Assembly (NCBI GenBank): GCA_951406725.2
Contig: OX597828.1
Coordinates: forward strand, 54,932,001-54,996,000
Reading direction: 5' to 3'
DNA from: Octopus vulgaris
Lineage: Eukaryota
DNA: 64,000 nt
Shown here in pieces: positions 1 through 8,658 of the stretch. The notes below the pieces were generated by a model. The model was not told the DNA's origin, ran no database searches, and saw nothing but the letters and a program-made list of their open reading frames with translations. The first letter of the stretch is position 1. Each line of letters begins with the position of its first letter. The position numbers and the translations under genes are program-made.

Positions 1-119
1 CAAGAGGACAGTCATCGCCAGGAAGTTTGCAATCAGGACAGCAACCATCGAATGCCATGCGACAAATTCCACAATTATCATCATTGGCAATCCATCGCCA
101 TGTGGCTACAGCTGTCCAG
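1..119 (-). CDS. ANAPC11: ANAPC11 (APC11 RING-H2 subunit) coding exon 3, runs off the window edge
   Basis: Minus strand ttgtttcag|C TGG ACA GCT... translates [39 protein letters not shown], matching APC11 (human [39 protein letters not shown]). Confidence 0.97.
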
Positions 120-924
120 CTGAAACAATGTGAAGGATCAGAAATCTATCAATAATATTTACATGAATCAGAAGAGTGTGTGTTTGTGTGTGTCTTTCTC
201 TATATTTGTCCCCCACCACTCTTTGACAACCTGTGTTGGGGTATTTATGCCTCTGCAACTTAGCAGTTTAGCAAAAGAAATTAATAGAATAAGTACCAGT
301 TTTAACCCTTTCGTTACCAACCTGGCTGAAACCGGCTCTGGCTCAGTATACCAGCCTGTGGGTGCAATAAAATGAGCTCATAGGCACAATTGCACCTGCG
401 GGCAGGGTTTCCCCACCCTTGATTTAATAGAATCTATTTCACATGGTCTGTTATTGATATCTGTTACTGTGAATTTACTTCTTACAAAATCCATCTTTTC
501 TGTCAGCACACCTGTGATTCCACTTCATTTCTCTTTCTCAATGTGTGTTGATGAAAGAAGTAAACAATGAGCAAACCAGAAAACTAGTTCTTTCTAATAA
601 AAATAACAGCAATCGCTTGGAACTCAAGAGCTATGATTTGGAAATCAAGTACCACAACCATCCAGCTATTTCTTTTCAACTCTCTTAACCACAGACCTTA
701 GCAGAAACAAAAGACACACAGACTGCAACCAGGAAAAAAATATGACACTTCACATAGTTGTAGCCTACAATAAAGATGCCACATATTAACATTGTAAATT
801 GGAACTTACAAGTTGATCCTATGTCTACCAGAGAGGACGGTCACAGTACTTACATGATTAATTGATTGAACGAGGAAGAGAAGTGACATTCACATTTTTC
901 TATCAGCCTCCCCTGGCACGTAAA

Positions 925-1650
925 AAGCTCTATCTGTACGTGGCCAATACCAGTGCCGCCTTGACTGGCTTCCGTGCCAGTGGCATGTGAAAAGCCCCAA
1001 CCGATCGTGGTCGTTGCCAGCCTCCCCTGGCACATAAAAAGCACCCACTACACTCATGGAGTGGTTGGCGTTAGGAAGGGCATCCACTGTAGAAACACTG
1101 CCAGATCAGACTGGAGGCTGGTGCAACCTCCTGGCTTCGCAGACCCCAGTCAAACTGTCCAATCCATGCTAGCATGGAAAACGGACGTTAAACGATGATG
1201 ATGATGATTTAACGTTAGTTTTTCCATGCTGACATGAGTTGGATAGTTTGACAGGAGCTGACCAGCTGAGGGGTCATTCAGGCCCCCTGTCTGTTTGGCA
1301 TGGTTTCTACAGCTGGATGCCCTTCCTAATGCCGTCCACTTCACAGAGTGTACTGGGTACTTTTACGCAGCACTGGCATGGGTGCTTTTTACATGGCACC
1401 AGCACCTACAAGCCTGTGAGATTAGGGATACTCAGCTGAAGAGGATTGCAGGGGACGAGCCTGTATGCAAGGACAACTACTTACTTAGCTTCACATGTCT
1501 TTTCAAGCACAACAAACCGCCAGGGGTCTCGGTCCCCTGAAATCCCTTCTGTGAGTTCTAACGTCTGTAAATCCTTTCTCACCACTTTGTCCCACGTCTT
1601 CCTGGGTCTACGCCTTCTATATGTTCCCACTCCAATTATAGATCAGCATC
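925..1650. mobile_element. Two tail-to-tail copies of an abundant LINE-3'-end/SINE-like repeat with (GAT)n tail (family 3)
   Basis: Motif ggttggcgttaggaagggcatccagctgtagaaa..catgctagcatggaaa..cgttaaacgatgatgat on + (925-1208) and - (1205-1650). Further copies near 5420, 8230, 9340, 15330, 18450, 29280, 30050, 34270, 34925, 37200, 38980, 47000, 47680, 52170, 54470, 61630, 62228. Confidence 0.85.
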
Positions 1651-1829
1651 TCTAATGTTCATCAATAAAGCGAAATAACTCCAACCAGAATTTAAATGTC
1701 ATGTAGTCAGAATTGGTATACCTGAATCTTACCTCTTGGCTGTAGCACACGGGACAGAGAAACTTTAGAAATAAAAAAAAATCCTTTTGTGATCAGGAAA
1801 CCATTCTTTCTTACCAAACTGCTACTCAC

Positions 1830-1830
1830 C
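1830..1830 (-). CDS. ANAPC11: ANAPC11 single-nucleotide exon 2 (G; middle base of Ser7 codon A|G|C)
   Basis: Minus strand atttcttttctgtattacag|G|gtgagt: pyrimidine tract, CAG acceptor, one base, then a consensus donor. Supplies exactly the 1 nt needed to join exon 1 (phase 1) to exon 3 (phase 2). Confidence 0.88.
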
Positions 1831-3022
1831 CTGTAATACAGAAAAGAAATTTCATAATCATAGATGACAATCAAAGGAAAGTATGACTTAATGTTTGAAT
1901 GATAGGATAGGTTAATATACATTGATACAGGAATGGTAGAGGAGAGAAAGTGCACATTTGAATGACCAAGAGAAAATACATTAAAAAATATTTATTTTCA
2001 ATCAATGTATGTATTGATGTGGTATTGGAATAAAATAACAATGTATACAATTTATATGAAAAGGTATTAAATGTCTTTTTTTTTTTTTTTTTTTTGGTGC
2101 AAGAGAAACTCCTTTTTAGATCCTTTGTGCATTAACAACATAGCCTGCTCTGAATGACATCAGCGGACCATCAGACACCAGTGTTTTGGCACAATTTTGC
2201 CCCATTTCCGGGAAAAGTGAAAAATGAAGGTGGGGGAAATTGAAATTTGAAAATGCGATTTTTAAAAATTTTTTTCCAGAATCGGATCTTCCATTACCAA
2301 AAACGTGGGATTCCGTAAAAAAAATCTATATATATCCATTTTACCGGAAGTTATGACGGAAAAATCAGATCTTGTGAATTTTCCGAAAGTCCCCCTGCCC
2401 AGGGTCGTGGGTGCTCATTTTTTTTTTTTTCATATTCATTTTCTAAATACTTGTTAATACCCACCAGGCAGGGTTTCATTTTTTTTGTTCCCGGGTGAAG
2501 ATTTTTATATTGACCGGATTTTTGTTTTGTTTTCGTTAACGGGTGAGGATCTTTATATTGAAAATTCCCTCCAACAAATGCACCATGGTAGAGGCATTTA
2601 GAAGAATGATAGTATTTAATTAAGGTCACCGAGTGTATAACGAAATCAGAAGCTGTGGATAAAACTGGCAGAAAATATAAAAGTGCAAAAAAAGAGTTTG
2701 AACGGTTGACAGCAAATGAGACACAAATCTCTTCAGCGGAAACAGAAAAGTGTCTTGAAGGGAGTAGAGACAAGTGGATGTGCAAAAGAAACCCTAATCC
2801 TTGTGAAACATGATAAATGTGAACGAAAATCAGAATTTAGGATCAGAGAGAAAAAAATTCAATAAAAAGTGAAGAATCTGATTCATTATAATTCTTCTTC
2901 TTTACGCAATATTTCCAACTCTGGGCTTCTAAATGTAAATTCATTTGTCCAATACAAATGCCACAGTGTACCATATCTTCATCTATTTCTATAAAATAAA
3001 TGAAATAAAAGGAAATCCTTAC

Positions 3023-3041
3023 TTTTTACTTTCACCTTCAT
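3023..3041 (-). CDS. ANAPC11: ANAPC11 coding exon 1 (MKVKVK + A)
   Basis: ATG AAG GTG AAA GTA AAA A|gtaagg; MKVKVK matches the APC11 N-terminus (human MKVKIK). Confidence 0.93.
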
Positions 3042-3059
3042 CTTTTTTAACTCATGCAG

Positions 3060-3275
3060 CCCGCCATTGTTATCAGAATCAGTTATAAAAACAAATCGTA
3101 GTTGCGTATCTCCAAACAAAACTAGACATATTTATATATATACGTTCAGTATTAATTTTAATATAATCACACATTTAAATAGTATATTAAAAATAACGAC
3201 ATTAAACTAGAAAGTAAAATTTTAATACTAAACTAAATATAAACATTTCTCCTGAAATCTGTAAAAATGGCGGTT
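3060..3275. promoter_or_regulatory. Putative bidirectional promoter between ANAPC11 and DIS3L
   Basis: About 200 bp very AT-rich spacer bounded by outward-facing YY1-like ATGGCGG motifs (minus 3061-3070, plus 3264-3273); genes are divergent. Confidence 0.6.
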
Positions 3276-7543: not shown

Positions 7544-7742
7544 ATGACTGCCGAAGAAAGTGATGACTTTGAGAAAGCCCCATCCACCACCTCTATATCC
7601 CAGATTTCCAGAATAAACAGACAGTTCCGGCTGAAGTCGAACCGGAAAAGCAATATTATTAGTATGGTACAAGAACTCTATCTTCGAAAAGATGTTCCTT
7701 GCAAAAGTCTTTTATGCCAGAACAATTGCACATCGAATAAAG
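7544..7742 (+). CDS. DIS3L: DIS3L coding exon 1
   Basis: Acceptor aacag| at 7521, ATG 7544, ..VQELYLRKDVPCKSLLC.. (CR3 motif), donor G|gtaagt. Confidence 0.92.
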
Positions 7743-8658
7743 GTAAGTGTGGATGGGTTGGTTTGATCTTTTGTTTTACTTTTTTAATTGTTTCAGTCCA
7801 TATGTGGCCAAGCTGGGGCACCACCTGCATGTCTTAATCATCTCAAACCTAGTACTTACTTTGTCAATCTCTATTTGACAAATGGCTAAGTTACTTTTTT
7901 GACATATAGGTGTAGGAGTGGCTTTAGTCGAGCAAATCAACCCCAGGACTTTTTCTTTGGAAACCTAGTACTTATTCTATCAGTGTCTTTTGCCGAACTG
8001 CTAAGTTAGGGGGATGTAAACACACCACCATCAGTTGTCAAGGCTATAGTAGAAGACACTTGCCCAAGGTGCCACGCAGTGGGAATGAACCCGGAACCAT
8101 GTGGTTGGTAAGCAAGCTACTTACAACACAGCCACTCCTGTCTGAAATAATTTATTGTTTATTTGATTTTAATTCTTTAGAGTAGTTAATGTAATCTCTG
8201 GAGGTGAAACCTGTTTAATATTTGGCCTCACTGAGGAGATGACAAGAGACTGAGACATCTGGCAATTTGCTGTACTTGTAAATACATGTCAAGCTAAGTA
8301 AAACCATGGCCATCCATACGTACAGTCAAGTCCTTTATGACCCATGCTGTCACCACATAAAATGCCCTTGTACCTGCGTCACATAAAAAACATTCATGTA
8401 AATAGCATTTGTACTAGCACCACGTAGAAACATCTGTCCAGTGTCATGTAGTAAAATCCCCTGGTACACGCTGTAAAGTGATTGGCATTAGAAGGGCATC
8501 CAGCCAAAGAAATCGGGCCAAAACAGACAATTGGAGCCTGGGCAGCTCTCCAGCAAGCCAGCTGCTGCCAAATTGTCCAACCCATGCCAGCATAGAAAAC
8601 ACGTTAAATGATGATGATACATATCCAGGAATAAAACACTTGATGATGTTGTATACAT

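Follow-up and report, generated by a model that had tools for sequence, protein, structure and literature searches.

A one-nucleotide coding exon has been described in the APC11 gene of plants (Guo and Liu, 2015, PMC4674806; Yu et al., 2022, PMC8831610, the latter available in part). Both papers, in their accessible text, argue for a stepwise removal of the two introns that flank the single base (PMC4674806; PMC8831610), and the one-base exon of Arabidopsis is spliced with a downstream intron of ~89 nt (333 of 422 nt; PMC4674806). Removal of the downstream intron first is on record for the mini-exon of potato invertase, as cited by Guo and Liu (PMC4674806), and a one-base coding exon is reported for CYP621A of Fusarium, another gene in another kingdom, in the available extract of PMC12940212. 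Neither a downstream donor acting as a scaffold nor an occurrence in animals is mentioned in the accessible text of the two plant papers (PMC4674806; PMC8831610). How the spliceosome handles an exon that is too small for exon definition is a question that the plant papers leave to the future. Recursive-splicing exons (RS-exons) were reportedly described by Sibley et al. in 2015. In flies, a ratchet point depends on a cryptic exon of poorly conserved sequence and variable length, according to the accessible part of PMC8605326.

The window analysed here, a 64,000-nt stretch of the Octopus vulgaris genome, begins within an APC11 gene that probably contains a one-base exon of its own. The gene lies on the minus strand, and all coordinates are those of the window. 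The coding part of exon 1 (19 nt, 3023..3041) ends one base into codon 7, at a weak donor (AAA/GTAAGG, with a U1 pairing of -5.0 kcal/mol), exon 3 (119 nt, 1..119) begins with the last base of codon 7, and contigs join the two; the last exon is found ~3.7 kb past the start of the window, in flanking sequence (L004). The one-base exon, a G at 1830, would supply the middle base of Ser7 (A-G-C) and separate intron 1 (1,192 nt, 1831..3022) from intron 2 (1,710 nt, 120..1829), both of the GT..AG type, the second with dispersed repeats at ~215-430 and 860-1710. The predicted protein matches Pfam zf-ANAPC11 with 124.2 bits against a cut-off of 25 (49.7 bits for exon 3 alone), which identifies it as the RING-H2 subunit APC11 (ANAPC11). 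Its closest named relatives among the best 120 of 434 homologues are molluscan (Dreissena, 98% over 40 residues). A search of the 2.8-Gb assembly (227 contigs) gave one match, with two candidates scored, and hence a copy number of one; no APC11 retrocopy was found in this search.

Twenty-four sequencing runs are listed, all as contigs and with RNA status not recorded, of which seven were examined. Contig joints were analysed in four (X1, X13, X11 and X3), which are RNA by our guess and come from close relatives or other individuals. Three of the four (X1, X13 and X11, representing three studies and two organism labels) join exon 1 to exon 3 with one extra G in between, seen as a joint of 119 to 3022. 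Whichever of the three possible registers is chosen, the skipped segment lacks GT..AG ends, which excludes one ordinary intron as the source of the extra G. The joint tables are swamped by repeats, with 49 joints, 905 loose ends and 20,426 pieces beyond those listed, and the joint of exon 1 to exon 3 was not seen among the joints listed for X3; this run has one unspliced contig across 1811-2064, from either pre-mRNA or DNA. In X13, a depth of 3.42 in the bin 1820-1926 corresponds, by arithmetic, to sequence joined to neither exon 1 nor exon 3; it does not recur in a separate comparison over 1660-2060, in which X13 and X2 yielded no contig, possibly through filtering. A contig of X11 reaches 3072, upstream of the coding part of exon 1, and the gene is thus transcribed at least that far. 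A six-codon upstream open reading frame (3047-3067, minus strand), which ends 5 nt ahead of the APC11 ATG, lies within this transcript and could affect both the translation of APC11 and nonsense-mediated decay (NMD). In divergent orientation to APC11, an ATG-started frame at 7544-7837 (plus strand) has no Pfam match; it resembles what we take to be the start of a DIS3-like exonuclease.

The need for a one-base exon, proposed in a sequence-only reading of this locus, is borne out by the extra G in the contigs and by the reading frame: the full APC11 start is obtained only from exon 1, G1830 and exon 3, and an early stop follows if the G is omitted or if 98-nt or 16-nt extensions of it are included. 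On the minus strand, the acceptor AG at 1832-1831 is followed by G1830 and then by GTGAGT, and the frame requires a single base; G1830 has AG before it and GT after it, as a one-nucleotide coding exon would. As the origin of the extra base we infer position 1830, the best of five AG-G-GT/GC sites in the 2,903-nt span between exons 1 and 3, with the most pyrimidines and the sole GTRAG donor; for a coral-like homologue (L023, below), a part-spliced junction shows the origin of the base. No longer micro-exon fitted any other donor-acceptor pair tried in the span. The acceptor region of the one-base exon (1831..1875) is pyrimidine-rich, with a possible branch A at 1871 as a motif guess. Its donor (1822..1832, AGG/GTGAGT in the pre-mRNA) is by U1 pairing the strongest of the 167 GT sites from exon 1 to exon 3. 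Removal of intron 1 would rebuild the junction as AAG/GTGAGT, which had been called ideal; it does match the consensus at 9/9 positions, but the pairing improves by only 0.6 kcal/mol, from -11.7 in the pre-mRNA to -12.3 when rebuilt. An in-frame skip to an acceptor at 112/111 was rejected as a candidate: the conserved Trp would be lost, and no contig supports the skip.

Conservation around the exon could be assessed in two close relatives, X18 and X20, large runs that are likely DNA and that each provide one contig spanning 1660-2060. These differ from the window by 16 and 14 letters, respectively, and 18 variable sites are listed. None of these sites falls within the 78 nt around the one-base exon (1800-1877; p 0.018 under a fixed-interval test, the interval having been picked with the data in view).

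If splicing of a single 2.9-kb intron slipped by one base at a non-canonical donor or acceptor, the extra G would be accounted for, and no one-base exon would exist here at all. The G can indeed be aligned to either 3022 or 120 (joint ambiguity 'both = 2'), and no contig joint falls at 1830 itself. However, the intron ends would be non-canonical in all three registers, the strong AG-G-GTGAGT with its pyrimidine tract lies in the unchanged 78-nt stretch, and neither the A found as the single base of coral-like homologues nor the L023 junction can arise by such a shift; we regard this reading as highly improbable.

The homologues are drawn from 20 metagenome loci that were found by a pattern consisting of the start of exon 3 and its acceptor. 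The layout is complete in six (L009, L012, L014, L016, L020 and L021), which amount to five distinct genes because L014 and L021 represent the same one. The contig does not reach exon 1 or the one-base site in L010, L011, L015, L018, L019, L024, L026, L027 and L028, of which L010 was scored apart; L013, L017, L022 and L025 have no codon-7 intron, and L023 is part-spliced. Together with X18 and X20, the comparison covers close relatives and distant animals. In 6/6 complete loci exon 1 ends after base 19, exon 3 runs from base 21 and one base is needed, and an AG-N-GTRAG site, whose chance frequency is 0.11-0.15 per kb, is present in each. Two of them, L009 (introns of 324/894 nt) and L012 (700/352 nt), share the Lys-Ser-Trp junction of the window. 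The motif of L014/L021 and L016 matches named coral proteins, and these loci are called coral-like here; their intron 1 is 122-126 nt long and their one-base exon is an A, a base available from neither of the flanking splice sites. In the coral-like loci the rebuilt donor is weaker than the pre-mRNA donor, so that the 'ideal' rebuilt junction of the window follows from its Lys-Ser codons. Across the complete homologues, the introns measure 122-713 and 330-894 nt, shorter than the 1,192 and 1,710 nt of the window.

Several of these loci show peculiarities of their own. L020 has two AG-A-GTAAGT sites, 544 and 330 nt before exon 3, either of which supplies the same base; they may possibly be redundant one-base exons. 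Intron 2 of the coral-like L014 contains decoy AG-G-GT sites 199 and 392 nt before exon 3, the stronger of which is lost in L016. L013, L022 and L025 are APC11-like without the codon-7 intron and encode a protein close to that of L012, the similarity stopping about six codons short of the usual exon 3 end; they are possibly paralogues with an altered intron pattern or decayed retrocopies.

L023 bears on the order in which the introns are removed. At positions 1-20 of this contig (APC11 on the plus strand), 13 nt of exon 1 are joined to the one-base A, with intron 2 following in full. Over 2.7 kb, L023 and L021 share 99.4% identity, and what L023 lacks is exactly the 126-nt GT..AG intron 1. The neighbouring gene in L023 is without four GT..AG introns that genomic L026 has, and the contig is therefore RNA-derived. 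L023 represents either an upstream-first re-splicing intermediate or a retained-intron form, at one contig end and in another phylum. The earlier proposal that intron 1 leaves first and that its junction is re-used as a donor thus finds its part-spliced junction, in a single contig from another species; an upstream-first order appears somewhat favoured by analogy with L023, the order not being seen in O. vulgaris itself. In the L023 gene, intron 1 is short and a conserved helper donor downstream is absent. L018, from the same gene as L027, has lost intron 3 but retains the intron before exon 3; this hints at slow removal of the intron that follows the one-base exon, but L018 is perhaps an assembly mosaic and was left out of the argument on order.

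Taken with what follows, these observations lead us to favour, as the probable explanation, a one-base exon that is likely constitutive, with two introns that are likely removed in turn and with a further donor downstream, at 1733, that is likely a cryptic bystander. U2AF/U2 and U1 could not occupy the overlapping AG-G-GT together, and the site would serve first as acceptor and then as donor; it is the overlap that implies use in turn. Pairing across each intron, helped by the strong GTRAG donor and the pyrimidine tract, would be sufficient, with no dedicated 98-nt exon. Cryptic donors at 16, 98 and 109 nt would lose by competition to the 1830 donor, and any leak to 1733 or 1815 would meet a stop and be cleared by NMD as noise.

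The 1733 donor had been flagged in the sequence-only reading as GAG/GTAAGA at 1733/1732 (1727..1735), delimiting with the acceptor of the one-base exon a 98-nt pseudo-exon (1733..1830). Letters and coordinates are correct, as is the predicted stop: inclusion would add an Arg and then, as the second codon, a stop. This stop would fall at CDS nt 22 and precede the exon 3/4 junction by 212 nt. The distance rule for NMD is 50-55 nt. The stop is NMD-eligible, as that of a poison exon would be. Two further donors that pair with the same acceptor had been overlooked, namely a weaker one, TTG/GTAAGA at 1815/1814 (1809..1817), which gives a 16-nt extension with the same stop, and a weak one, CAG/GTATAC at 1722/1721 (1716..1724), which gives 109 nt and whose -3 base differs in X18; both are cryptic. 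U1 pairing amounts to -9.6 kcal/mol for 1733, which is tied third of the 167 GT sites in the span, -8.0 for 1815 and -7.2 for 1722.

Donor scores were based on pairing with the 5' end of the genome's own U1 RNA, a crude duplex energy, and on match to the consensus. More than 20 U1 snRNA genes, in both orientations, are densely clustered at G000:C18:48.97-49.21 Mb. The background was 168,000 bases from the same genome, namely both strands of the window and of two 10-kb flanks; pairing with U1 as good as that of the 1733 donor is reached by 59 of its 9,883 GT sites. The chance of a like donor at an exon length of 50-250 nt is 0.069 by U1 pairing in this background and 0.081 by 720 non-overlapping background windows at 20-250 nt; it becomes 0.37 by consensus (at least 7/9) and 0.027 by the exact AG/GTRAG core. 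The 1733 donor, chosen after the fact, is good yet not rare, and exceeds chance only modestly. The region 1640-1960 is single-copy in the genome, and so the second donor does not come from a detectable repeat. The predicted fold of 1700-1900, made without a shuffle comparison, has AT-rich pairing across the one-base exon.

A comparison with the homologues does not support the proposal that the 98-nt unit defines the exon. A donor as strong as 1733 is absent within 250 nt in 5/5 distinct animal APC11 genes with the one-base exon: the best donors 20-250 nt downstream pair with -3.6, -3.7, -7.0, -6.5 and, for L020, which was scored twice for its two candidate one-base sites, -8.3/-5.2 kcal/mol, compared with -9.6 here. 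Their background fractions (0.93, 0.92, 0.29, 0.40 and, for L020, 0.16 or 0.66) show no enrichment. No donor of at least 7/9 or -7 kcal/mol was found within 400 nt downstream (up to the next acceptor) in L009 and L012. No strong downstream donor is common to the two coral-like species, L014/L021 and L016, the two best of L014 being lost or weakened in L016. Because other animals thus have the one-base exon without such a signal, the proposed 98-nt scaffold is likely a bystander. In L010, whose intron 2 is 1,232 nt long and whose exon 1 is off the contig, the donor TTT/GTAAGT is found at 121 nt (-7.3 kcal/mol; background fraction 0.25).

It is conceivable, though we consider it unlikely, that the 98-nt unit works as the scaffold of an RS-exon: U1 at 1733 would define the 98-nt exon, intron 1 would be removed, and the rebuilt donor would then win, the remaining 97 nt leaving with intron 2, in which case the helper would be lineage-specific and needed as the introns grew past 1 kb. 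The acceptor does adjoin, offset by one base, a donor that is strong once intron 1 has gone, and a strong second donor (top 7-8% of the background) stands at a typical exon length. The rebuilt donor beats the helper (-12.3 versus -9.6), as donor competition in flies requires in the accessible part of PMC8605326, and a 6-nt micro-exon made in two steps needed a downstream donor in a human reporter, according to the available text of PMC6224609. The upstream-first junction exists in the relative L023, the long-intron L010 has its fair donor at 121 nt, and the introns of the window are longer than in all complete homologues. Moreover, the poor conservation of fly helper exons, as described in the available text of PMC8605326, means that a missing shared site does not exclude a helper role. 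Against this reading, L009 and L012 possess the same Lys-Ser-Trp junction with introns of 324-894 nt and no donor of 7/9 or -7 kcal/mol within 400 nt, and the gene that shows the intermediate (L023) is without a conserved helper. The rebuilt donors of the coral-like genes are weaker than those in their pre-mRNA, and the chance of such a donor is about 0.07. An RS-exon would keep no exon base and lie in a very long intron; here one base is retained, and the span is 2.9 kb.

A regulated poison exon appears very unlikely; in this reading the 1830 and 1733 donors would compete, and the fraction of transcripts thereby routed to NMD would be controlled and would set the level of APC11. The position of the inclusion stop, 212 nt upstream of the last junction, would suit it, and in human cells the exon-junction complex (EJC) suppresses donors up to 15 nt from a fresh junction, which would favour the 98-nt form (PMC6224609, available in part). 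However, the inclusion form is missing from the contigs that are joined across the stretch: no contig of the four runs covers 1733-1810, X1, X13 and X11 are joined across it, and the depth of 0.35 in X3 there equals, by arithmetic, exactly the unspliced contig ending at 1811. Neither the 98-nt inclusion form nor a part-spliced form was seen in the contigs of these four runs, which drop rare and NMD-degraded forms; an NMD target would be scarce, and 49 joints are unlisted. The body of the 98-nt unit and its length show no constraint: it holds 6/18 variable sites in X18 and X20, or 0.061 per base compared with 0.045 overall, a comparison of low power, and X18 has a 1-nt deletion inside it. The 1733 donor is intact in both relatives, an outcome with a probability by chance of 0.66. 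The 98-nt body thus seems to change at the intron (neutral) rate, and the conservation expected of a poison exon is not supported. A counterpart exists in 0/5 homologues, ANAPC11 is unmentioned in the accessible text of the poison-exon literature found, and a stop would be expected in nearly any AT-rich stretch of intron. With no inclusion contig, a neutral-rate body and no homologous counterpart, the proposal that donor competition tunes APC11 dosage is not supported.

A composite of these ideas is rather unlikely but deserves to be set out. The one-base exon would be ancient, common to plants, cnidarians and bilaterians and spliced in two obligatory steps, and in lineages such as this one it may have recruited a fast-turnover cryptic donor (here 1733) as a scaffold once its introns exceeded ~1 kb, with the EJC setting the loss to the 98-nt stop form. 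If this were true, an essential base would be made constitutively by a route that in human cells gives only erroneous micro-exons. The 98-nt unit matters only if it is needed for splicing, which we rate as unlikely, and the bystander reading of 1733 remains our preference.

The exon may also have left a footprint in protein databases. Of the 52 homologues labelled, taken from the best 120 of 434, 48 match the motif, and 20 of these 48 APC11 proteins have foreign N-termini, similarity being lost just before the conserved Trp. All 20 are from invertebrates (molluscs, echinoderms, cnidarians and insects), two of them marked as low quality by the source; the entries from Arion and Glandiceps were flagged and are not counted among the 20. 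The ten vertebrate APC11 entries have normal starts. These N-termini are likely mis-annotations and fit a one-base exon missed in many invertebrates, which would explain the wrong starts of these APC11 models if the shared position holds.

Our searches found only plant and fungal reports of one-base exons, in texts that were partly available and with most subscription papers outside the search. Within this search, the occurrence of the APC11 one-base exon in animals is new, the exon being likely at the plant position and likely spliced stepwise. For an essential gene of the cell cycle, the locus and its homologues allow the question to be tested in animals: the one-base donor is strong, some of the genes have a second donor and others do not, and the coral-like L023 offers a first sight of an upstream-first intermediate. 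The RS-exons and ratchet points of vertebrates and Drosophila resemble the locus in their abutting acceptor and donor, an expected use as acceptor and then as donor, a near downstream donor and a stop that inclusion would bring, as described in the available text of PMC8605326 and PMC6110457. APC11, however, keeps one coding base and thus has an obligatory exon, whereas ratchet points are zero-base; its introns are 1-2 kb compared with a mean of 9.1 kb for fly recursive segments, and no helper donor is found in the APC11 homologues. The EJC-repressed cryptic micro-exons of Blazquez et al. (2018, PMC6224609, available in part) use a donor 1-15 nt into a longer exon after the first splice and so leave a micro-exon, which is the route proposed in the sequence-only reading, but there the long exon is normal and the micro-exon an error, while in APC11 splicing yields the micro-exon and no long form is seen. 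The one-base exon of plant VPS55, in the accessible text of PMC8831610, has a conserved GTRAGT donor like that of animal APC11, although in another gene and kingdom. The closest system is plant APC11, in which the same gene has one base between two GT..AG introns, essential for the frame and missed by annotation. The base is A in Arabidopsis, as in the coral-like loci, and G in O. vulgaris, and the Arabidopsis introns are ~0.33 and 0.09 kb compared with 1.2 and 1.7 kb here. The forward primer for all Arabidopsis APC11 variants ends 19 nt from the ATG (PMC4674806), which is where exon 1 ends here; judged from this primer rather than from an exon boundary, the same position (CDS base 20) is suggested, and if it is shared with plants then the one-base exon has survived since early eukaryote divergences.
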